IMG/VR virus record: IMGVR_UViG_3300024308_000022
Span: 62,001 to 116,042 of that record
Reading direction: 5' to 3' (one strand)
DNA: 54,042 bases
DNA from: an uncultured virus (IMG/VR IMGVR_UViG_3300024308_000022)
Lineage: Duplodnaviria; Heunggongvirae; Uroviricota; Caudoviricetes
Shown here: positions 6,528-50,745 of the stretch, piece after piece
Layout: each line of letters begins with the position of its first letter
Numbering within the stretch: position 1 is the first letter of the stretch
Made by a program: the position numbers and the translations under genes
Notes under the pieces: generated by a model
Seen by the model: the letters and a program-made list of their open reading frames with translations, nothing else
Databases searched by the model: none
What the model was told of the DNA's origin: nothing

Positions 6528-6556
6528 CAGGGAGGGCTTCGGCTCTCCCTGTGCCG
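6528..6556 (+). terminator. Terminator-like hairpin
   Basis: CAGGGAGGGC-TTCG-GCTCTCCCTG followed by TGCCG. Confidence 0.75.
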
Positions 6557-6557
6557 T

Positions 6558-6593
6558 CTCGAAAGTTTTATAGATATAAATTATAGAGTTGAG
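6558..6593 (+). promoter_or_regulatory. Putative early phage promoter
   Basis: Core AGATATANATTAT; 32/36 identical to 37589..37624 upstream of chimallin. Confidence 0.75.
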
Positions 6594-6622: not shown

Positions 6623-7288
6623 ATGCGCGTTTTAAAAGAAGAAGAACTACAGGCGTTACCGCCACTTGGGTTTGACCTTGATACCGTCTCGGTACTTGGT
6701 GTAAAACCTTTAGAGCTCGACTGGCCTCAGTCGTTACGGGATAAGATCCACACGAACGGTCGTGGGAATCAAACGGTGGTGTTACCGATAGACCGCGTAC
6801 AAACCACCAAGATCTGTTACAACGAGTTGTTAGGCTGTAGTAATACGTTGGTACTCACAGGTCTACAAAACTTCACTGAGTCTCACGTAAGAGCTCCTGC
6901 GGACCTTTTAGACTACATCACCACGTACCTGCTGTGGCCCAGTAAAGGAATCACCCCTCCTTTACATACCGATCTTGCAATCCCTCATCCACATCCAAAC
7001 TACATCGAGTGGTCAGTCGGTGGTAAACAAAGCGTGTGGCTTCGGGCTGACGTGGTCGTCGGTACACTGATTGTGTTACTCGCCACACTGGACGGAGTAG
7101 ATCGATTCACCACGAAGTACAACGAACGGGAAATACGTACGTTCTTACAACGACACCTGACTGTTGTCTGTGTGCTGCTACGGCACTTTCTAAACCACAA
7201 CCGACAGCACCACGAATCGGTGTTACTCAGCAAAAAACCACAACACCTTACAGGGTATGTCAAACCTGTGGTGTTTGTAAACGCTTAA
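6623..7288 (+). CDS. Hypothetical early protein
   Basis: AAAGGAG RBS; first gene after the promoter motif. Confidence 0.7.
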   Translation: MRVLKEEELQALPPLGFDLDTVSVLGVKPLELDWPQSLRDKIHTNGRGNQTVVLPIDRVQTTKICYNELLGCSNTLVLTGLQNFTESHVRAPADLLDYITTYLLWPSKGITPPLHTDLAIPHPHPNYIEWSVGGKQSVWLRADVVVGTLIVLLATLDGVDRFTTKYNEREIRTFLQRHLTVVCVLLRHFLNHNRQHHESVLLSKKPQHLTGYVKPVVFVNA

Positions 7289-20723: not shown

Positions 20724-22019
20724 TTACTTAAAGTAGTGTTTCGTGAGGGCTCTGAGTGCAATGTAGAGCATCACGCCACTCCGCTCTGGGGCGGTAGGGA
20801 CGGTCGACTTCCTGAGTTTCAAGTCTTGGACTAAACGATCCCCAAGCTTCCGTAAGTGCATGACATTCTTGTCGTTGATACGTGAACCCATGTACATGGC
20901 TTTGAGTCGTTCAATCAAAAACGCTAAGTCGGACGTTTTGATTCTCCGTGAAGCCATAAACTCGATGGTGTAGAGTAAGGTTTCTGTTAGGAGTTCTTGT
21001 AGGTACGCTTTCTTTGGATTCGTGAGGTTTTCACTTAGGTAGTAAAGCGCTGCTTCAAAGACTTTTTTGTCTATAGAAGGAATTGCTACTGCCACCACGT
21101 CGATCAGCTCTTGTCGTACAAAGTTCTTTGGCTCTAATGCTACCTGTTGTAAGTAACGCATCAAGTCATGGTACACACGTGAGACGTCACGGATAAACGT
21201 CCCTTCTGAAGACTCAATCACAGAGCTTGTCGTGACCACACGACTATTGGAGCTACGGACGTCGTAGAAGACTTTGGTGTAGTCTTTGATTACGTTGCGT
21301 ATCCGTGTCTGCATGTCTGATACCATATACAAACACGCTTCGTCTGGTCCGTACTTCAGTAAGGTTTGTACGTGTAAACCTTCACGAGAGACAAAGTGCT
21401 CTGCTCTGGAGTCAAAGAGCGCCGACCACGTCCCTAAGCGTTTGATGTCAAACCGTTGACTCAACGACTCTTCTGAAAGTTCCGTGGGATGGTCTTTCAG
21501 TAAACGCGCTACTACAGAGTCAAAGTTTTCAAAAGCGACTTTAGCAACCGCAGGGTCAGCTGGGTAGTGGAAGTACTCTGAGAGTAACGAAGAGCTAAAC
21601 TTGTAGTGCAATAAACGCACACAGTCTTGCTGGGCTTGTAAGGAGACGCTTTGACTTAAGTCGGAGTCTTTAAACCGATACACGGTATACAGCAGCAAGT
21701 GGTTCAGTGGATCAGACAGAACATTGTACTCTTCGGGAATCAACGGCTCTGAGGGATCTTTAGGGCTTTTGAGTTTCAATAAGTCTTGTCGCAGTGCGTA
21801 CTCGTCAATCCGAAAGACTTCATCAAACAACCAGTCTCGGTCTTCCCCAGTGAACTTGACTGGGTACACGCCTAAAAGACCTGTCCCAAAAAACATCAAG
21901 TGATCTTCGTTCTTTGTTTTAAACGCTTGTACGGTGTGCTGTAAAGACCCAGCCATCCGACGATCGTATTTCAAGTGACTGCATACACGATCGAATAGTT
22001 CTTTTAATTGAGCCGACAT
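20724..22019 (-). CDS. Virion structural protein (phiKZ gp032-like)
   Basis: KNEDH..FFG..LLGV, FDIK.LGTW, LYI.LRALT motifs; AGGAG RBS; TATG at 22050-22047. Confidence 0.75.
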   Translation of the reverse strand: MSAQLKELFDRVCSHLKYDRRMAGSLQHTVQAFKTKNEDHLMFFGTGLLGVYPVKFTGEDRDWLFDEVFRIDEYALRQDLLKLKSPKDPSEPLIPEEYNVLSDPLNHLLLYTVYRFKDSDLSQSVSLQAQQDCVRLLHYKFSSSLLSEYFHYPADPAVAKVAFENFDSVVARLLKDHPTELSEESLSQRFDIKRLGTWSALFDSRAEHFVSREGLHVQTLLKYGPDEACLYMVSDMQTRIRNVIKDYTKVFYDVRSSNSRVVTTSSVIESSEGTFIRDVSRVYHDLMRYLQQVALEPKNFVRQELIDVVAVAIPSIDKKVFEAALYYLSENLTNPKKAYLQELLTETLLYTIEFMASRRIKTSDLAFLIERLKAMYMGSRINDKNVMHLRKLGDRLVQDLKLRKSTVPTAPERSGVMLYIALRALTKHYFK

Positions 22020-22058
22020 GGGCTTACACTCCTGTTAGAACGTCTACATAAAATGCAG

Positions 22059-22088
22059 CATAGTGGAGGGGGCCTCAACCCCCTCCAC
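22059..22088 (-). terminator. Terminator-like hairpin closing ncRNA A and the helicase transcript
   Basis: Minus strand GTGGAGGGGG-TTGAGG-CCCCCTCCAC-TATG. Confidence 0.75.
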
Positions 22089-22251
22089 CAGCTAAACGGT
22101 GCGCTTTAGGTACAGTGGGCTTTGGTAACCACCAACCAACGCCCTCACCACCATCCTGCAACAGAGGGACTACGTAGCTAAAAAGGAGTAAAACTACGAG
22201 TAGGACGGGAACCATTCACGGGCGTTTTTGAGAAACGTACGTAATCGCACC
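22059..22251 (-). ncRNA. Candidate structured ncRNA A
   Basis: TATG at 22254-22251; nested helices GGUGCG/CGCACC, AACGCCC/GGGCGUU, CCGUCCU/AGGAUGG, CGUAGUU/AGCUACG; loop UUACUCCUUUUU; no ORF; followed by a terminator. Confidence 0.65.
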
Positions 22252-22262
22252 ATACCATTACC

Positions 22263-24257
22263 CTACCAGTAAAAACTAACTGGCATTCTCACCCCAGTGT
22301 CTAAACCGTAGTCTTCGGTAGAGACCGTTCCTGTGGTCCCCATCAACTGGTCGATCTGTCCTTGTGCCCACTCGAGGATCTCTTTAGAACGAGTAGAAAT
22401 GTTAGGGACGTTCCCAGTATCTAAGAACACATCAAACACGTAGACCTGCTGGTCTTGTCCGATCCGATCCGCTCGAGCAATCGCTTGCTCTCGTTCGTGG
22501 GGTCTAAACGGGGAGTTCAGAAACACAACGGTGTTCGCAGCAAGGATAGGGACTGCGGTGGATAAACTGTCTAAGGTCGCTACCAGAGGGTTCTCACTAC
22601 CTTTCTTGTAACGTTCTAAGATACCGTCTAAGTCTTTGTTGGTTTCTGCAAAGACCGTGAGAGGTTTGTACCCTAACCCTTTAAGTCGTGTGTCTGTTGC
22701 TTTGACAACATCTACGTAGGACGTAAAGAGTAAAGTTTTCTTAATGGACGAATCCACTAAGTCTTTTAAGTCTAGATTTTCCATCACCTCGATCGCGCAC
22801 TCCACGCGTTTACGATTGAGGAGGTTTCCTAAACACTCTCCACGTACTTTCAAAGGTAAGTACTTCACGATACTTTTCACTTCCTTAAACTGACGCGCTA
22901 GGGCATCTGGTAAAGAAGGAATCAATTCGTGTTTCTCGTAAAGGTTACAAAACTTGATCTCTGGTCCTAAGTGACGGTAGTCGGTACTCTTACGGATGAT
23001 TCTCAGTAAAGTTAAGTACTTGGAGAACTCGTGTTGTTGAGACTGTGACTTGAGCGCAATTCGGTCTTTGTGGTACCGGATACACTCCTCAAAGAGTTTT
23101 ACGTAGTGGTCAAAGTCTTTCTGGTAGTACTTTAACCGTTCTGTGATATACTCGGTCATTGCTACACGAATCACATCTAAGGTGTACCGTTCTGCTTTGG
23201 GAATCTTTACGCGAATCTCTTTAACGATCGGAGCACGTTCGATGATCTCGCTTTTGTCGATTCGGTAGGTGGTCTTACCGATACGATTGGCTAAGATATC
23301 CAAAGCTCGTGCAGAGTCTAGACCATAGATCGTTCGAAACGCAGTCTCTGTTTCTTGAGTAAAGAGTGGGTCGATCGTCCGTAAGAAAGGAATGACTTCT
23401 TTCCCTAACGCTTTGATCGGCGTTCCCGACATCCAGAGCGTAGAGACTGGGTTGAGTAGTTTTGCTAACGTCACAAAGGCATCTGTACGGATAGAGTCAG
23501 GGTCATTAAAGTTGTGGCACTCGTCTAGGACGAGGTTGACTCTTTTCCCTTTTAAGAACTTTGCTTCCTCTAAGAACTTGACTAAGTACTCGTAGTGGAG
23601 GATATAAAACCGTTTGTTAGGAGGTGGTGGTGTACCTACCGCAGAAGTCCAATACGTGGGAGGTGACACAAACTCTTTATCCAACGTACTCGCCCATGGA
23701 TCAGTTAACGCGTTCTTCGGACACACGACGATGGTGTGGTCGGTTTTTAACCCATACGACAACCACGCGGACATTAGGGTTTTCCCAGAACCCGGTGGGG
23801 AGGCTAACATATAACCACGTAGACCGTACTGCTGTGCGTTACGCTCGTACTCTTTAAAGAACGCTTCCTGATGCGGATACGGTTTCTTCTTCAGGAGTTT
23901 AAACTGACTACGGTCTAATAAAGGAGACTCTGGTTCTACGAGGGTGTTCTTAAGCCACGTGTGTTCCAATAAGCCCGCTTTGATACTGAGGAGGGTTTTA
24001 GCAAAGCCTTGTGTACCTTTGTACTGGAGAAAGAGTTTCTCTACGATATACAAAAGCTCTACCGCAAAGAACTTGTGGAGTTTAAAGCCAAACTTGTTGT
24101 GTTCGCGAAAGATCCCTGATTCAATTTTCGAGGTCTTCCACGTTTTGTAGATCAGCTGAGAAAGACGTTGGTTGTTGAGGCCCTCTACGTGAATTTGATC
24201 TCCGATTTCTTCTACAGTGACATACCCGACAAAACGTTTTAATACGGAGCTAAGCAC
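22263..24257 (-). CDS. SNF2/superfamily 2 helicase
   Basis: PPGSGKT, DECH, SGTP, QAIARADRIGQ; GTG 24257 after AAAAGGAAGGGG. Confidence 0.9.
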   Translation of the reverse strand: MLSSVLKRFVGYVTVEEIGDQIHVEGLNNQRLSQLIYKTWKTSKIESGIFREHNKFGFKLHKFFAVELLYIVEKLFLQYKGTQGFAKTLLSIKAGLLEHTWLKNTLVEPESPLLDRSQFKLLKKKPYPHQEAFFKEYERNAQQYGLRGYMLASPPGSGKTLMSAWLSYGLKTDHTIVVCPKNALTDPWASTLDKEFVSPPTYWTSAVGTPPPPNKRFYILHYEYLVKFLEEAKFLKGKRVNLVLDECHNFNDPDSIRTDAFVTLAKLLNPVSTLWMSGTPIKALGKEVIPFLRTIDPLFTQETETAFRTIYGLDSARALDILANRIGKTTYRIDKSEIIERAPIVKEIRVKIPKAERYTLDVIRVAMTEYITERLKYYQKDFDHYVKLFEECIRYHKDRIALKSQSQQHEFSKYLTLLRIIRKSTDYRHLGPEIKFCNLYEKHELIPSLPDALARQFKEVKSIVKYLPLKVRGECLGNLLNRKRVECAIEVMENLDLKDLVDSSIKKTLLFTSYVDVVKATDTRLKGLGYKPLTVFAETNKDLDGILERYKKGSENPLVATLDSLSTAVPILAANTVVFLNSPFRPHEREQAIARADRIGQDQQVYVFDVFLDTGNVPNISTRSKEILEWAQGQIDQLMGTTGTVSTEDYGLDTGVRMPVSFYW

Positions 24258-32272: not shown

Positions 32273-32278
32273 TACTAT

Positions 32279-32470
32279 GTAGTTACCTCTGAGGTGAGAA
32301 GTTTTAGAGTCCGTACTTTTCGTGTAGTCTCTAAACCGGTTCCACTTCGGAGGTCATCCTCGCCTCCTGGGGAGTCTACAGCTCGTTGTTTAGTTTTACG
32401 CAATTCTTCCTTCATGAAAATTGGGTTTGATAAACCACCACGAGAGGAGCTATACGCTCCTCTCTTTTTT
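32279..32470 (+). ncRNA. Candidate structured ncRNA B
   Basis: TATG at 32276; 12-bp helix 32285-32296/32343-32354 with two G-U pairs; inner UUUAGAG/CUCUAAA; ends in an intrinsic terminator. Confidence 0.6.
32442..32470 (+). terminator. Intrinsic terminator
   Basis: GAGAGGAGC-TATAC-GCTCCTCTC-T6. Confidence 0.8.
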
Positions 32471-32504
32471 CACGTTTTTTTTTTGACATTGACGACTATG
32501 GTAT

Positions 32505-32620
32505 GTAGACCACGCTGGGTGTCCTTTCGGCGGTGGAATACGACATGTACCTGAACCTCGTCTTTGGCTTTCCCCAATGCCTTAGAGACAAAGGGGGTTT
32601 GCTGACCCCCTCTTTTTTTT
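32505..32620 (+). ncRNA. Candidate structured ncRNA C
   Basis: TATG at 32502; hairpins CCACGCUG/CGGCGGUGG and GUCUUUGGC/GCCUUAGAGAC; own intrinsic terminator. Confidence 0.6.
32592..32620 (+). terminator. Intrinsic terminator
   Basis: AGGGGGTT-TGCT-GACCCCCT-C-T8; a further hairpin ending in TATGCCG follows at 32626-32653. Confidence 0.8.
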
Positions 32621-37438: not shown

Positions 37439-37588
37439 GAGTCTTGAAGACGTTTTCGCACATACCATCAGTGTTTATTTTTACTGCTGTAGTTATACTA
37501 TGTAGAAAACACAGCAGGCTTTGTAAAAAGTGCCTGCACAGCCACTCTCTATGCGGCTAAACCCCCAAATTCCTATATCCGTAGACGA

Positions 37589-37624
37589 CTCGAAAAATTT
37601 ACAGATATAGATTATAGAGTTGAG
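37589..37624 (+). promoter_or_regulatory. Putative early phage promoter for chimallin
   Basis: CTCGAAAAATTTACAGATATAGATTATAGAGTTGAG, near copy of 6558..6593. Confidence 0.75.
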
Positions 37625-39592: not shown

Positions 39593-40795
39593 GTGGTAGA
39601 AACAAACGAAAACGACGATGGCGTCTATCTAGAACTCGTCGATTACGTGGAAATGTACGGCGCACAGTCCGTGCCACCGGTGTGTATCAATGACATCGAC
39701 GCACGTACCGTGCAAGCAAAACAATTTCTGTCCAATTTAATACGGACAGAGTACGATGGAGACCAAGTCAGCGTCCTCCCGTCGTGTGGGTGTGGGCATA
39801 CCACAGGGCAGTATGCAGCAAGCATTAAACTGCGCTGTGAGCTGTGTGGTACCGTTCCCATGAGTATTCTCGAGCGTCCAATCGAGTCTACGTTATGGAT
39901 ACGCGCACCACGGGGCGTGAAAGCGTTGATTAACCCAACAATCTGGTACATCTTAGACCAACTGTTTAAGAAGAACGGGATCAGTATCATGCGGTGGTTA
40001 TGTGACCCCTACTACCGTATCCCGAGTGGTCATAGTGCGTTTGGAGAACAACTGGAAGCGTATGGGTTTCAACGGGGGTTGAATAACTTCTTTGATCACT
40101 TTGACCTGTACTTAAGTATCCTCGTGGATAACCGATTGTACTCAGGCTCACCCGATCGCAAAGACAACGTCATGGAGCTGGTGCGTGAGAACCGTGACTT
40201 GGTGTTTACTCCATATCTACCAATCCCAAACAAGATTGCGTTTATTACAGAGAAAACAGCGGTGGGTACCTACGCCGACTTCGGAATGGTAGACGCGATT
40301 GATGCAGCCTACACCATTCTCGACTTAGGGGAAGCGTACCAGAACGTACGGTTAAAGAAAGCAGAGAGTCGTGCAACGGTGTGTGTGGTACAACTCAGTG
40401 CGTACTACAACAACCTGTACAAGAACATTCTAGGTGGGAAGAAGGGATGGTTCCGTAAACACATCTTCGGTACACGTGCAAACTACAGCTTCCGTAACGT
40501 CGTGAACTCCTTGACAGGATGGCACTTATACTCAGAGCTGGAGATTCCGTGGACGACTGCGATTGCTGTATTGCAAGCACAGCTCACCAATAAGCTTTTG
40601 AAACGTGGGTGGGGTCCGAATCAGATTGAGAAATTCCTGTCTGAAAACGCTCACACTTACAACCCAGAGCTGGATGCACTCTTTGATGAGTTAATCAGCG
40701 ACTCCCCTTACGTCGTTGGTGTTTATAACCCCATCGGTACACAACCCCACGAACATCGAGAGATCCGTGGTATCCCGTGTATTTTCCATCGAAAT
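39593..40795 (+). CDS. nvRNAP beta' N-terminal subunit (phiKZ gp055-like), exon 1
   Basis: Zn finger C.CG...C..CGT, KKGWFRKHIFG.R; ends at ...FHRN just before the conserved PTL. Confidence 0.9.
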
Positions 40796-41217
40796 TGACT
40801 TAGGTTTCCTTTACTGGTAACAGTAACGCCAAACTCCTCTAACTGCTGGGACGATCTATCTAAAACTCTTTACCACAACGCAACTGGAAACGGTCTACGT
40901 GACGGTTTGAAAACAAAGAGTCTGGGTCTATCAGCAGCGAAGTTCCTAAGGGTGTATCAGCAGTATACATTACGGAATGTGTTCAACGACTATCGAAACC
41001 GCTTTCTTGCAATAAGAAAGAGAAGGGAGTAGAGTAGCCCGCAAGCGATCGAAAGGTCAGGTGGTTAGCCTAGCGCTAAGTAGTTTAAAACTATGCGAAA
41101 CGAGGAGCTCCGTTATCCCTACTTATAACGGATGAAGATATAGTCTTTTATCCCAGGTAATTCTGGGGACGTTCTTTTAAGAACTGCGTAGGTGTCGCGC
41201 CCTACGTGAAAGCAAAG
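40796..41217 (+). mobile_element. Group I intron 1 (ORF-less, 422 nt)
   Basis: Exon ends in U, intron ends in G; P1 GAAAU/GUUUC with U-G; P3 CUCCUC/GAGGAG; P AACUGCUGGGA, Q AUCAGCAG, R GUUCAACGACUA, S AAGAUAUAGUCU. Confidence 0.92.
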
Positions 41218-41331: not shown

Positions 41332-42885
41332 GAAATAACATTAATTAACTTAACATGCATCTATCTTATGCGACTAGCATGAGAAGGAAATGAAAGATGC
41401 GCGAAGGTTTGATAGAATCGAAAAGATACCCTAAGTATTACCACCACCCCCAGATTCCTCGGATTGTGATTTCCGAAGAAGGGATAGTAATTGATGTTTT
41501 GTTAGATTATTGTCCCTTAGCGTACTTCAACTCACATTTCGGGTATAACGTGATGAACATACGCGGTAAAGGCACGATGACACACCATCGTCTTGTCGCC
41601 GAAACGTTCCATCACAAAGAACACGACCACTACGTCACGAATCACATCGATGGCGATAAATTTAACAACAGAGCCAGTAACCTAGAATGGGTCGATAGGA
41701 AAAGAAACTTATGGCACGCTTACGAGTTAGGGCTGAAGAAAGATAATCGTCCTGTAGAGGTCTTAGACTTAACCACGCAGGAAGTTAATTCGTTCTTGGG
41801 TTTAAACAAAGCAGCCGCGTGGCTGAAAGCGTCCCAGAGTAGGTTACACGTTTATCTGAACTCCACACAGCAAACTCCGTTCTTGAAAAAATACAACGTG
41901 CGTTACGCGGACTCGAGTTGGAAACAAATCGATTCCAGTAATGTCGGCGAGAAACCAAATGGTGCCCCGCGCGAAGTTGTATTGACTTCTAAGGATGGAA
42001 AAGAAGTTTATATCTTCGAGAGCTACGGGGAAGCTGCCAGATACTTCAATGTGTCTACGAGTTCGATATGGCAGTCGATAAATAGGGGGACTAGAGTCAG
42101 GGGTTTATTCCTAGCAAAACATCTTGACGAGAAGGAAGGTTCTGTGGGAACTGTCGTTAAGAGAAAGCCTAAGAAAATGTCACCTAACTCGCGACGTCCG
42201 GCCTTTCCGATAAAAGTAACCAATAAGTTGACCGGCGAAGTTAAGCACTACGCGTCGACTCTGGACTTTTGTGCGGAAGTGGGAGCTCGAAGAAATACGG
42301 TACAAAGGGGAATGTCCATCAACGGGGGTAGATGGTCAATATATCAAATCGAATACGTTAACGTTAGTTAGTATGTTAAAGTCCCATCTATCCGCGAGGG
42401 TGGATGCGTACACCACTAAACGCTGGAAAAGCCTAAAGCTCTGCAACCAACACCGTGCTGGAAACAGTAAACTACAGTACTTGGCAGCAAGTGCGGTACA
42501 CGGAGATCACTAGGACGGCGCGAGTCTTCTGAACGTCAGGTGGGGAAACCCAGAAACAATCGTAGAGATGCCCTATGCTGAAAAGAAACCGGAAACGGCG
42601 CTAAGGGGATGAAAAAGAAACCGAAAGGTAAAATGGTCAATCAGCAGCGAAGCTCCTAAGGGTTTGTTTACACAGATTACGGAGTGTGTTCAACGACTGT
42701 CCCGTAGCGGGGAGTAGGGGTACAAGCTAGAGTGAAAACTCAAGGTACTTCGAAATGTGGTGCTGCTCTTCTATAAAGGAGAGTAGATGGTATAGTCTGC
42801 ACTGTAGGGAAAGCCTACAGCTGCGTACCCACGCTGTGAAGCGTGAGACGCGGGAGAGCCTTGCGAACTCTCCGAACATACATGG
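41332..42885 (+). mobile_element. Group I intron 2 (1554 nt) carrying an HNH endonuclease
   Basis: IGS GUUAAA-GUC (42375-42383) pairs with both exons; P3 CACCAC/GUGGUG; Q AAUCAGCAG; R GUUCAACGACUG; S GGUAUAGUCU; terminal G 42885. Confidence 0.92.
41397..42371 (+). CDS. Intron-encoded HNH homing endonuclease with NUMOD1-like repeats
   Basis: HRLVA.TF...NHIDGDK.NN...NLEW....N..H, then three HTH-like repeats (e.g. FESYGEAARYFNVS); own TATG (41367) and GAAGGA RBS. Confidence 0.92.
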   Translation: MREGLIESKRYPKYYHHPQIPRIVISEEGIVIDVLLDYCPLAYFNSHFGYNVMNIRGKGTMTHHRLVAETFHHKEHDHYVTNHIDGDKFNNRASNLEWVDRKRNLWHAYELGLKKDNRPVEVLDLTTQEVNSFLGLNKAAAWLKASQSRLHVYLNSTQQTPFLKKYNVRYADSSWKQIDSSNVGEKPNGAPREVVLTSKDGKEVYIFESYGEAARYFNVSTSSIWQSINRGTRVRGLFLAKHLDEKEGSVGTVVKRKPKKMSPNSRRPAFPIKVTNKLTGEVKHYASTLDFCAEVGARRNTVQRGMSINGGRWSIYQIEYVNVS

Positions 42886-46768: not shown

Positions 46769-47548
46769 ATGTCCGAAACGACAAAAAACTCATTAGGCGA
46801 ATGGAAGTTATCACTGACAGCGCCAGCCCATCGCAACGCAGAGCAACGCGATGATCGTCCTATCAAACCGGTCTTTCGTGTAGCGATTCGCTACAACCAA
46901 GTGCAAGCGAAAGTGTACACGGGTGTAGCAGGGGATAAAAACAAAGGCGTGATTGAAGCAAACATGTCACTGCCTATCTTTGGTGCGTTCATTGAGTTGA
47001 TCAAAGACGCGTCTAAACCAGAGTGGCCAGCAGGCAAACGCATTGCGGTATTAAACCGTAACTTCACGTATCCGAACGGAAAGCGCTCAGAGAAACCTGA
47101 AGAGATCTCTAAGCTGTACGTAGGGAAAAACAAAGACGGTGTGGTATACATCGCGTGTGTAGCTCCTGAGTACCAAAACCGTCCGATGATTCAATTCGCG
47201 TTTACGGACGATGAATGGTTTGCTCTGGTAGACGCTGACGGCAATTCATTAAGTGAAGCAGACGTGTCGATGTATTTGGCGCGTGAGTACGCTGCGCGGA
47301 TGGAATACTTAGTCCGTCAAAACTACCACGATGGTTTCCAAACCAAAGAAGAAATCGAAGCAGCGAAAGAAGCCAACAAAGCCAACCGCGGTGGCGGTTA
47401 TAACAAAGGCGGTGGTGGTGGCTACAATAAAGGTGGCTACAACAAAGGCGGTAACGGCGGTGGGTACAACAAAGGAGGAGACTCCGGTGGTGACAAACCT
47501 GCAGCAGGCGGCGGTTGGGATGACGCCGACGACGGTTTACCGTTCTAA
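46769..47548 (+). CDS. chmC: Nucleus-associated RNA-binding protein ChmC (phiKZ gp067-like)
   Basis: Lies directly before the gp68-like gene; folded N-domain (L.VGK..DG.VYI) plus a G/N/Y-rich disordered tail. Confidence 0.72.
   Translation: MSETTKNSLGEWKLSLTAPAHRNAEQRDDRPIKPVFRVAIRYNQVQAKVYTGVAGDKNKGVIEANMSLPIFGAFIELIKDASKPEWPAGKRIAVLNRNFTYPNGKRSEKPEEISKLYVGKNKDGVVYIACVAPEYQNRPMIQFAFTDDEWFALVDADGNSLSEADVSMYLAREYAARMEYLVRQNYHDGFQTKEEIEAAKEANKANRGGGYNKGGGGGYNKGGYNKGGNGGGYNKGGDSGGDKPAAGGGWDDADDGLPF
47392..47477 (+). repeat. Coding repeat, 4x GYNKGG
   Basis: GGYNKGG units visible in both protein and DNA. Confidence 0.85.
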
Positions 47549-47556
47549 GTAAACAA

Positions 47557-47592
47557 CATACTGAGGAGAGCATTTCGCTCTCCTCTTCTATG
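47557..47592 (+). terminator. Terminator-like hairpin
   Basis: CATA-CT-GAGGAGAGC-ATTTC-GCTCTCCTC-TTC-TATG. Confidence 0.7.
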
Positions 47593-47602
47593 TTCCTCAG
47601 CA

Positions 47603-47629
47603 CTCGACAAGTTTTCAGATATACATTAT
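47603..47629 (+). promoter_or_regulatory. Putative early phage promoter
   Basis: CTCGACAAGTTTTCAGATATACATTAT, 23/27 identical to the chimallin promoter. Confidence 0.7.
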
Positions 47630-47687
47630 TGTTAGGACTAGCCCCAATCAATCGCGAAGGCTGGATAAATAAAAGAAGGTACAAGCT

Positions 47688-49235
47688 ATGCATTTTCATA
47701 CCGCTTACTGCCCGATGTCTCCCACCAAGACATTGGTCTTAGAGCACCAAGGAGAGCAGCTGCGTTGGGTAGTGTCTGGGTTTTTAGCCACAGACCGACC
47801 CGACCGTGTCGTACGGGACATTAACCACTACTGGAGTAAAATACCACAGCACCGCCAACAGTTGATCTTTGACACTTACAAGGACATGCACTACAAACTC
47901 CACAACATTGAAAACCCCGACCGGATGCACGAACGGTTGATTGAAGACTTTCGAATGTTGATGGACAACCACCCGATTGAAGAAACCATACTCTGGGCAG
48001 AAAACGAATGTCAGATCAAATACCACCCTGACATCAAAGAGCACTACGACGACGGTTTCCCAAAAGAGATCACGTACGTGACATCAGAGTACCGTGCGTT
48101 ACTGGCGTTAGTGTTACGTAGTCGACCACTGCTGCCTTTGTTTGCAGTGTACTGCGCAAACGTGAAAGACTCGTACGGCGTGCAGTTCAAAGAGTATCAT
48201 GCTGCGAGTATTCTGGAGGACACGGATTACGTGACATCAGAAGCGTACGAACGCATGTTTCTGTATATCCGACACCACGTGGAGAACGCAGACCGTTCTG
48301 AAGCCGCGGTGTTAAACTCCTTAGGGACAGTGACATTACCAGACTACGTGACTGCGATGGCGATCGTTCGTAAACTCACAACCTGTGAACTCCCTTATAA
48401 AGGAGAAGACACGGAGCCTGTGAATCTGGTAGCAACGCTTTACAACTTTGTAAGGTCTACTTTAGATGGGCTGAACAACAAATACGGTGGTGCAATTCGC
48501 AACAAGAAACCTCAGGACGGGAACGACAACGAACCTGATAACACGTCTTTACCCGAAGGCTACAAAAACCGCACAGACGTGACGGAGTTGGATTCTCAGT
48601 TGTATAAGGTCCATACTCAGAACGCGTTGGTATTTGCCCGTAGAATCGATTCTACGGTGCCTGAGGCGTACGTAGATCGGTGCTGGGCGGTGTTGTGGGA
48701 ATCTGCACGGTACGCACCTCACCCTATCCAACAAACGCTGGTGCAGTGGCTGGTGAAGCTCGCTGATCTTTCTCCGCATGCCATTCCACACTTGGATGCA
48801 GAAGAAACAATCAAAGTGTTTGCTGCAGTAAAGGCAGTCCTGTGGCATTGGGAGTATTACGATCTAGCTGCACTTATTAGCGCGTTCTGGAAACGAACTC
48901 CGGAAGATACCATCTACGGGAGTCGTCGAAACCCAATCACTGATGAGCAGGTAGAGCAGTTACGTAAGCTGTTTCCTTACTACCAGCAACTCAAAGGGAA
49001 AACTCTGAGTAAACACGCTCAGATCCAAGGGGTAGGAAAGAAAGAGATCGTTCACAATGAAGCTATCCGTGGGATTGACGCGGTAGTGACGTTAGGAAAC
49101 GACTTAGTGTGGGAGCTGAATGGTCCTCCAGAGTTATTGGAGAAAACCAATTGGTTAACCAACCCTCATGGAAAAGTATTCCCTGCGGATATCAAAGTCT
49201 TTTTAGCCAGTTTAGTCATCCGTATTAACCAATAG
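47688..49235 (+). CDS. nvRNAP promoter-specificity subunit (phiKZ gp068-like)
   Basis: About 515 aa; IN.YW..IP...Q..IF..Y, TY...EY..L, S..EGYK; synteny. Confidence 0.78.
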   Translation: MHFHTAYCPMSPTKTLVLEHQGEQLRWVVSGFLATDRPDRVVRDINHYWSKIPQHRQQLIFDTYKDMHYKLHNIENPDRMHERLIEDFRMLMDNHPIEETILWAENECQIKYHPDIKEHYDDGFPKEITYVTSEYRALLALVLRSRPLLPLFAVYCANVKDSYGVQFKEYHAASILEDTDYVTSEAYERMFLYIRHHVENADRSEAAVLNSLGTVTLPDYVTAMAIVRKLTTCELPYKGEDTEPVNLVATLYNFVRSTLDGLNNKYGGAIRNKKPQDGNDNEPDNTSLPEGYKNRTDVTELDSQLYKVHTQNALVFARRIDSTVPEAYVDRCWAVLWESARYAPHPIQQTLVQWLVKLADLSPHAIPHLDAEETIKVFAAVKAVLWHWEYYDLAALISAFWKRTPEDTIYGSRRNPITDEQVEQLRKLFPYYQQLKGKTLSKHAQIQGVGKKEIVHNEAIRGIDAVVTLGNDLVWELNGPPELLEKTNWLTNPHGKVFPADIKVFLASLVIRINQ

Positions 49236-49248
49236 AAAAAGGAGTCGT

Positions 49249-50745
49249 ATGAGCCAAGTCAATGGGAATTCACAACAACTGCACGTGACTATGTTTCAGT
49301 TGTTTGAAACCGACCGATTTGCAGAGATGGTGGGGCGTCCGCTCACGAGTCACGTAACGGGGCAGGTACTGAATGCGTTTCAAGAAGCGACTCAGCACGG
49401 TCAGTTCTTAGACCACACGACGTTGTCTGGTGTCGCAGGTCAGTTTATCATGCCAAGTGCTGAGACGTTCCGTACGCCAGGGATCATCAACGGCTGGTCT
49501 GAAGCACGGTTTCGTTTCATTATGGAACTACAAGAGAACGCGATGGGTGTGGGGTTACGTACAATCCTGACGGGCTACACGGACCACTACGGGTACGCTC
49601 CAGGTAGTACGGCACTTGATCCGAAGATGGCCTTGTATTTCACCAATGTCATTCGGGTACGAGATCAGATCGTTAATGGACCAAACGGACCACAGACAAT
49701 CACAACCCTGCTGGATGCTGACATGATTCTCAAAGGCTTAGCTGCCAGTGGGTATCAGTCAGGTTTACGCAACGAGCAAGCGTTACGTCCCGTGGATGTG
49801 TTCTCCAGTCTAGCCATCCCTTCGCAATACAACCAGCCGGGGATACAACTGTTTGACGGACGTACCAGCTTCCAAGCGGGTGCGCAGTTAAGCCGTACGG
49901 ATAACGCGATTCCTAGCCGCTGGGCTGAGAAAGTTTTCCAAGGCTTTACAGCAGCGTCTACCAGCGTGGACGTGATGGACGCAGAACAACGCGACCTACA
50001 TCGTCACGCACGAGGCATTGTTGCTGAGAACCAAGTCAGTAACATCGGTGTGCTGGATACGATGTCCTACGCATACGACTGGCGTAGTCGTGGTTACATT
50101 CAGCTGTGTGAATTGGAAGGTCTGTGTGCGCATTTGTCGCACGTGACAGAAGTTTTCCCATTCAGTCAAGCAGAGCGTATGGCAGCTTACACGCCAGGAC
50201 ACTCCTGTAATTGGGAAGGTAACTCCAACGAACAGGTGGCTGCCAGTATGGTATTGTCTGTGATGGCATCGATGATGTGGAAGTTTATGTTAGGGTACTG
50301 TAACTTTACTTTGACTAACGCCACACACGATGGTTCGTATCGTTTTAACGTGATCTCGAACGACCCCAGTGGTTCGGATGCTCCACGTTCTTACGTACGT
50401 AACTTGGATATCTCTCAATACGTAGCGCACTTTGGTCAGTGTATTACACGGGAGCTGATGCCAGGTTTAACTCGTCAGGGTGCATTGGTTGTTACACTGA
50501 ATGTGTTCTCTGACTTGATGGGTACGACCACCATTGACGTCAGTATCAACGGTCAACCGTTCGTGCGTTTTATTGCACCGACATTCGCCAATAGTCTGTA
50601 CACACCGCTGATCGGTACCGACCGTCAGTCGTTGGTTTCATTGTCTGCTGACGTAGACAATTTACTTTCACACGTAGGGATGGATAACATGCCTATGCAA
50701 AACTACACACCGCACACAGAAGCAGGGAGAACAAGATGGGGTTAA
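49249..50745 (+). CDS. picA: Phage nucleus import protein PicA/Imp1 (phiKZ gp069-like)
   Basis: I.NGW.E.RFRF, GYTD, LRP.DVF, PTFA.SL..P; follows the gp68-like gene. Confidence 0.75.
   Translation: MSQVNGNSQQLHVTMFQLFETDRFAEMVGRPLTSHVTGQVLNAFQEATQHGQFLDHTTLSGVAGQFIMPSAETFRTPGIINGWSEARFRFIMELQENAMGVGLRTILTGYTDHYGYAPGSTALDPKMALYFTNVIRVRDQIVNGPNGPQTITTLLDADMILKGLAASGYQSGLRNEQALRPVDVFSSLAIPSQYNQPGIQLFDGRTSFQAGAQLSRTDNAIPSRWAEKVFQGFTAASTSVDVMDAEQRDLHRHARGIVAENQVSNIGVLDTMSYAYDWRSRGYIQLCELEGLCAHLSHVTEVFPFSQAERMAAYTPGHSCNWEGNSNEQVAASMVLSVMASMMWKFMLGYCNFTLTNATHDGSYRFNVISNDPSGSDAPRSYVRNLDISQYVAHFGQCITRELMPGLTRQGALVVTLNVFSDLMGTTTIDVSINGQPFVRFIAPTFANSLYTPLIGTDRQSLVSLSADVDNLLSHVGMDNMPMQNYTPHTEAGRTRWG

Follow-up and report, generated by a model that had tools for sequence, protein, structure and literature searches.

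The 243-nt gap between an SNF2-type helicase gene and a homolog of PHIKZ032 in a nucleus-forming jumbo phage holds what its sequence indicates is a real non-coding insert. Its predicted fold is modest and its boundary signals are good, and it presents a loop whose complementarity to the ribosome-binding site (RBS) of the phage is unusually exact and whose bases are predicted to be exposed. The best reading of this element, to which we assign a probability of about 0.4, is a late anti-Shine-Dalgarno (anti-SD) RNA that would broadly occlude ribosome-binding sites. The window, by which we mean the whole 54,042-nt stretch of DNA analyzed, belongs to a 116-kb record, and genome-wide statistics were taken from a near-identical complete record (G001) of 233,377 bases. 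Chimallin, PhuZ, split RNA polymerase subunits and phiKZ-type virion genes were all found, identifying the phage as a chimallivirus, and it is isolated in sequence, the nearest relatives reaching 47% identity for the helicase and 52-53% for gp032. ARAGORN detected no tRNA or tmRNA gene in the window or in the complete 233-kb record; phiKZ carries tRNA genes (PMC8545117).

Boundaries and predicted fold of the insert

Both flanking genes lie on the minus strand, the helicase at 22263..24257 (PHROG 62, Pfam SNF2/Helicase_C) and the PHIKZ032 homolog, annotated as a structural head protein, at 20724..22019 (33% to PHIKZ032 by tblastn). The two genes are adjacent in this phage, distant from each other in phiKZ and Noxifer, and 2.7 kb apart in a further locus (L060, 1-5224), and the gp032 homolog carries a 20-residue insertion at residues ∼165-184 that is absent in all 15 aligned relatives. 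The helicase stop codon falls 9 nt ahead of a TATG (22251..22254, minus strand), which is a candidate late promoter. Read-through or TAG recoding of this stop was considered and rejected, given that TAG ends 23 of the 88 long genes and that the helicase C terminus ends as in its relatives. In phiKZ, the G of TATG is described as the late start site, the motif being necessary and not sufficient (PMC4666361); here the corresponding G at 22251, the putative +1, is the first base of the predicted closing helix P1. TATG occurs at a frequency of 0.00185 per base per strand, or ∼0.8% given a G.

At the other end, a terminator-class hairpin followed by TATGCTG (22056..22090, minus strand) begins eight bases past P1 and suggests a probable 3' end near 22060. 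Scans for Sigma-70 promoters and U-tract terminators found nothing, and the 22056-22090 hairpin was not listed by them. Hairpins followed by TATGYYG occur at 33 sites in the genome, 25 of which sit 11-53 nt past a stop codon; that of the element lies 200 nt past the stop, and seven others are at least 700 nt from a called same-strand stop. Behind the hairpin come a second TATG (22047-50) and the RBS (22027-35) of the gp032 homolog, which together span 22027..22050 on the minus strand, and with its own TATG behind the terminator this gene could be transcribed independently. Elsewhere in the window, a 39-nt repeat with 87% identity, found at 6555-6593 before the gene at 6623 and at 37586-37624 before chimallin, is probably an early-promoter motif.

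The element is preceded by the helicase stop and followed by a terminator whose class normally stands 11-53 nt past a stop, so that it makes up at least a part of the 3'-UTR of the helicase. The initial annotation had proposed that an RNA appearing only through read-through of the helicase 3'-UTR would count against it; the arrangement does put the element within that UTR. Whether or not a free RNA of ∼190 nt exists as well, which it may, the helicase mRNA should carry the core. Helicases of relatives mostly have a hairpin or the next gene directly behind them, the next ORF being reached within 150 nt in 62 of 66 scorable distinct flanks (from 84 non-self loci, minus 14 duplicates and four contig-end cases, by a rough ORF finder), and in L060 the helicase is followed only by a hairpin. 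This makes the ∼155-nt core an apparent insert between helicase stop and terminator. Opening with a TATG, closing with a terminator-class hairpin and enclosing no SD-led ORF, the element has, at the level of motifs, the layout of a small RNA made from a late promoter. A leader peptide is not supported, the two short frames inside the element (19 and 20 codons) both lacking a proper SD.

The structured core of 154 nt (22098..22251, minus strand) has a minimum-energy fold of -49.1 kcal/mol, a four-way junction closed by P1 (22246-51/22098-103). The other three arms, all predicted on the minus strand, are the P2 hairpin (22216..22244), the long arm P3 (22151..22208) and the P4 hairpin (22109..22149). 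P3 is made of 7 bp, an 11-nt 3' bulge (22158-68), 3 bp and a further 7 bp, and bears the anti-RBS loop; its two 7-bp helices have pair probabilities of 0.83-1.0. Four nested helices had been described in this region, and the arms of all four are indeed in the sequence, but the predicted fold is a four-way junction rather than a nested one. Three of the helices belong to the minimum-energy fold (pair probabilities 0.97-1.0 for 22246-51/22098-103, 0.83-0.85 for 22202-08/22151-57 and 0.92-1.0 for 22192-98/22173-79), whereas the fourth, 22220-26/22138-44, is a minor alternative (probability 0.07-0.08) that uses the 3' side of P2 and competes with P2 and P4. Forcing all four helices yields -46.0 instead of -49.1 kcal/mol, a penalty of 3.1 kcal/mol.

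The predicted fold is plausible, not compelling on its own, being modestly stable and without strong strand bias. The 196-nt interval delimited in the initial annotation has a stability z-score of -3.9, a value that owes much to the terminator hairpin inside it; the 160-nt core without the terminator gives z = -2.2 (12 of 500 shuffles equally stable), and the plus strand of the core z = -1.8 (20 of 500). Over 246 genome windows, whose z-scores are noisy with only 12 shuffles each, the 10th percentile lies at -2.5, and more than 10% of them fold better than the core. Of 300 shuffled sequences, 26 could nest four helices with 6 bp or more each, and six could nest three with 7 bp or more. The argument that G-U pairs work only on the minus strand proved weak, since just five of the 48 pairs are G-U, and the minus strand is better supported by the orientation of promoter and terminator.

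Rfam returned no match in the region when the whole window was searched, and the region alone reached no gathering threshold for 6S, tmRNA, SRP, riboswitches, ribozymes, C4 or FinP; the three matches recorded for the region alone all fall on the terminator hairpin, at 13.6-15.1 bits against thresholds of 45-90. Elsewhere in the window, where the RNA polymerase subunits are encoded, an HNH gene (41397-42371) is flanked by group I intron matches below the gathering score (40787-41167, E 6e-9; 42469-42820, E 1e-3).

An apical loop complementary to the ribosome-binding motif

P3 ends in a 12-nt apical loop, UUACUCCUUUUU (22180..22191, minus strand), which is present as originally noted and is the complement of the consensus ribosome-binding motif of the phage. 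No other 12-mer in the RNA is as accessible, the predicted opening cost being 0.2 kcal/mol here against 1.6 kcal/mol for the next distinct window, with a predicted unpaired probability of at least 0.98 at 10 of the 12 bases and ∼0.7 at the other two. The element is thereby predicted to share a trait of small RNAs of the NfeR1/CyaR/RNAIII type, an anti-SD motif held unpaired in a loop. When 211 start regions were aligned on GGA, the plurality sequence, AAAAAGGAGTAA, was the exact complement of the loop at all 12 positions; no individual start region among the 211 matches at 12 of 12, the best reaching 11, twice. Scored with the RBS profile from these 211 regions, the site at 22180 ranks first among all sites on both strands of the 233-kb genome, and no start codon follows it, so that it opens no gene.

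A third-order Markov model predicts 0.06 exact copies of the 12-mer per genome. Among 10,000 shuffles of the core, an anti-RBS 12-mer appeared in an apical loop at 10 bits or more in 10 cases, at 12 bits or more in two, and at the observed 12.7 bits in none. Correcting for ∼43 gaps and two strands raises these probabilities to about 0.09 at the 10-bit cutoff and 0.02 at the 12-bit cutoff; the loop exceeds what chance would readily give, by a test that was designed post hoc. The preference for AAGGAGT is common to several other chimalliviruses including phiKZ and therefore extends beyond this phage. When 130,915 non-coding bases were surveyed by structure alone in 12 chimallivirus records, some of them partly covered, anti-SD words fell in apical loops 13 times versus 15, 18 and 20 times for control words, the 22180-22191 loop being the longest clean case among those surveyed. 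Anti-SD loops are not enriched across the family, a caution that chance, too, produces loops of this kind.

The two 10-nt complementarities first noted, at 49236-45 in the RBS of a picA-like gene and at 1192-1201, are both in the sequence, and the accompanying remark that they are generic SD matches was borne out. At least 7 nt can pair in 60 of the 261 start regions, compared with 18 of 3000 random windows; five regions pair over at least 10 nt, and two other genes over 11. The picA-like gene at 49249 is a homolog of PHIKZ069 (E 4e-30), whose product gp69 we take to be PicA/Imp1; it ranks 9th of the 261 by loop match, behind the 1207 gene at 5th, and is not a special target. Of the eight best partners apart from the picA-like gene, none has a PHROG family. 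Extending the antisense arm with the 5' strand of the stem, so as to cover SD and start codon, singled out no target. Among window genes there was no bias toward early or middle genes (mean -7.1 kcal/mol, n = 11) versus late ones (-8.0 kcal/mol, n = 10).

The loop is the best seed of the RNA for ∼110 of the 261 start regions. Its mean pairing energy with all 261 is -7.3 kcal/mol, compared with -7.5 kcal/mol for a 16S rRNA tail taken from a Paraburkholderia genome (locus L272), which may differ from that of the host; the loop pairs better in 122 regions and equally in 20. The initial annotation had offered a trans-acting translational repressor or a mimic of the 16S rRNA 3' end. The former is our single best reading, and because loop and tail pair about equally well, pairing energy does not separate it from the latter.

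Relatives and known small RNAs

We searched for homologs by several routes. A blastn search of 50,697 phage records found none, nor did loci in viral, metagenome and genome contigs that were located through their proteins yield one, and four DNA patterns run over viral contigs, which matched 11, 14, 10 and 77 loci, recovered only the window phage, present in each list, and chance matches. A covariance model built on the one sequence found no homolog in sets of 58, 97 and 87 loci, nor in 88 other records (20, 40 and 28, many of them fragments), eight metagenome loci being left out of this whole-record search. On the pattern loci, the model matched nothing beyond the window phage except a seeded stem-loop in L023 (E 2.2); four of the first 11 (L027, L028, L030 and L031), together with the self locus L029, were folded and kept outside the model search. 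A model match in phiKZ (E 0.146) lies antisense inside PHIKZ082 and was rejected as chance, and a possible paralog in the same genome was likewise discarded, the 15-nt match being antisense in a gene and the model finding nothing else at E <7. Upstream of gp032 homologs (L020, L021, L033-L035 and 22 of 23 non-self metagenome loci), none of the folds listed was alike. The proposed search of helicase/gp032 intergenic regions in relatives thus found no similar element in the loci covered. This absence is weak evidence, as a one-sequence model reaches little at 40-53% protein identity, and with no homolog found no covariation signal could be obtained.

S. aureus RNAIII represses proven targets in trans by pairing with their SD sequences, and its loops are C-rich. 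CyaR, a bacterial RNA with proven targets, is described as acting by the same kind of trans-acting SD pairing as we propose for the element (PMC11795201), which has no sequence or Rfam likeness to CyaR or RNAIII. The closest parallel is NfeR1/alpha-r14 of rhizobia, in which, as in the element, an anti-SD motif lies in unpaired hairpin loop sequence with many predicted RBS partners, and whose anti-SD loops are reported to repress several mRNAs (PMC10746234). NfeR1/alpha-r14 is bacterial and conserved and is described with three hairpins carrying CCUCCUCCC (PMC10746234), whereas the element has a single A/U-rich 12-nt loop on a four-way junction, comes from a phage and has no homolog or Rfam match that we found.

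Among phage RNAs, the element resembles small RNA candidates described in phiKZ, such as the 197-nt 5'UTR-p40 and the PHIKZ298/297 RNA, in being intergenic, in starting at TATG, in its structured body and terminal hairpin, and in length (PMC8545117, PMC10914365); a layout running from TATG to a hairpin is reported for several probed phiKZ small RNAs (PMC10914365, PMC8545117, PMC11512511). None of 17 phiKZ small RNA candidates has a comparable anti-SD apical loop, a single TCCT word at 206786 being found and one antisense-oriented match, from a swapped coordinate pair, being disregarded. None of the 17 lies at the helicase or the gp032 locus, and the model R1 matches none of them. Our literature search, in which subscription journals and bioRxiv supplements were thinly covered, turned up no description of an RNA of this kind from chimalliviruses.

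Other structured stretches were seen in this phage and in phiKZ. Ahead of the DNA polymerase gene, at 32276-32620 on the plus strand of the window, are two more units of TATG, structured body and terminator (∼32279-32470 and 32500-32620; z -4.3 including terminators), the second with an anti-SD-like hairpin loop, UGUCCU; an 86-codon ORF at 32294-32554 is probably spurious, and in G002, too, the polymerase is preceded by a long stretch that is structured and apparently non-coding. In phiKZ, a 394-nt structured insert at 47529-47922 (L263:3530-3923) lies between the chmA stop and the terminator on the mapped chmA mRNA. It is kept in PA1C (85%) and partly in phiPA3, is missing from that position in seven other chimallivirus records including the window phage, and contains several sense GGA/AGGAG words with no Rfam match. 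It has no sequence similarity to the element (shuffle p 0.085-0.94).

Possible function and alternative readings

From the exposed loop, its complementarity and the flanking motifs, we infer a non-coding RNA of ∼190 nt that would be transcribed late in infection from the TATG promoter, starting at ∼22251 and terminating near 22060 on the minus strand, and that would also form the 3' portion of the helicase mRNA. From the four-way junction one rigid arm would project with the 12-nt loop at its tip, which would pair in the cell with A-rich AGGAGU Shine-Dalgarno regions and block 30S binding, so that loop-dependent repression would fall on AAAGGAGU leaders. Such an RNA would act as a broad translational damper of low specificity on mRNAs with a strong RBS, those of the phage and possibly those of the host, and not as a picA switch. 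This reading is favored by the TATG, which places +1 exactly at the start of the closing helix, and by the terminator that comes directly after that helix. Pairing of this length can suffice in a chimallivirus infection, since an 11-mer antisense oligomer against the phiKZ chmA SD is reported to abolish ChmA production (PMC12571901). Against an anti-SD repressor, no target pairs beyond the generic motif, and pairing with so many of its own mRNAs could harm late protein synthesis.

The most probable of the alternatives, which we nevertheless consider unlikely, is that the insert is non-functional or a relic, its plus strand being the start of a lost, divergently transcribed gene, with a strong SD, a 7-nt spacer and ACG in place of ATG, and its fold being largely incidental 3'-UTR structure. 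The 7-nt spacing fits the 6-8-nt mode of the genome, a divergent gene starts ∼90-105 nt upstream of the gp032 gene in phiKZ and Noxifer, and the modest z-score of the core and the absence of the element from all relatives searched agree with such an origin. A decaying site should nonetheless have drifted, yet this one outscores all 211 working sites; moreover, the 12-mer fits the loop exactly, the ACG is accounted for by the 7-bp stem, and the frame behind it closes after 11 codons. Somewhat further down we place a cis-acting 3'-UTR, in which the loop or the P2-P3 junction would fold back on the RBS of the helicase itself, or on that of gp032 150 nt downstream in a read-through RNA. Every helicase mRNA should carry the core, given its position between stop and terminator, 8 nt of the loop can pair in the start region of the helicase, and a 17-nt segment of the P2-P3 junction ranks that region 4th of 261. 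There is also a precedent in icaR of S. aureus, whose long 3'-UTR has an anti-SD motif (PMC3868564). icaR, however, is described as pairing specifically with its own SD (PMC3868564), whereas the match of the element to its own gene is unremarkable, the helicase site ranking 37th of 261 for the loop and 48th with accessibility. The junction segment was chosen post hoc, the gp032-like site ranks 61st and 112th by the same two measures and lies beyond the terminator with its own TATG, and the loop suits the genome consensus better than it suits either neighboring gene.

We judge it improbable that the element serves as a structural or decoy RNA bound by protein, or as a guide recognizing mRNAs by their SD without repressing them, as a mimic of the 16S tail, in protection from nucleases or in hand-over at the phage nucleus. 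The loop equals the 16S tail in pairing with phage start regions, a seed would need less of a scaffold than a four-way junction, and the phiKZ 5'UTR-p40 RNA is reported from RNA polymerase-associated and 30S fractions (PMC8545117); the element, however, has no identified partner, Rfam family or tRNA/tmRNA match. More speculative still, the RNA would read the SD motif itself as a free stand-in for the 16S rRNA tail, shutting down SD-dependent translation wholesale at the late switch or marking phage mRNAs and escorting them between the phage nucleus and ribosomes, a proposal to which we give little credence. If it were true, a lytic phage would exert general RNA-based control over translation, as opposed to control by a gene-specific small RNA.

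That the element represents a new form of anti-SD small RNA is credible, though unproven; it is known from one phage, and its value is limited by being a single example. The hypothesis is nevertheless sharp, and a synthetic RNA alone suffices to probe it, with no need of a phage isolate. It would bear on how ribosomes are shifted from host and early to late mRNAs during chimallivirus infection (PMC8545117).
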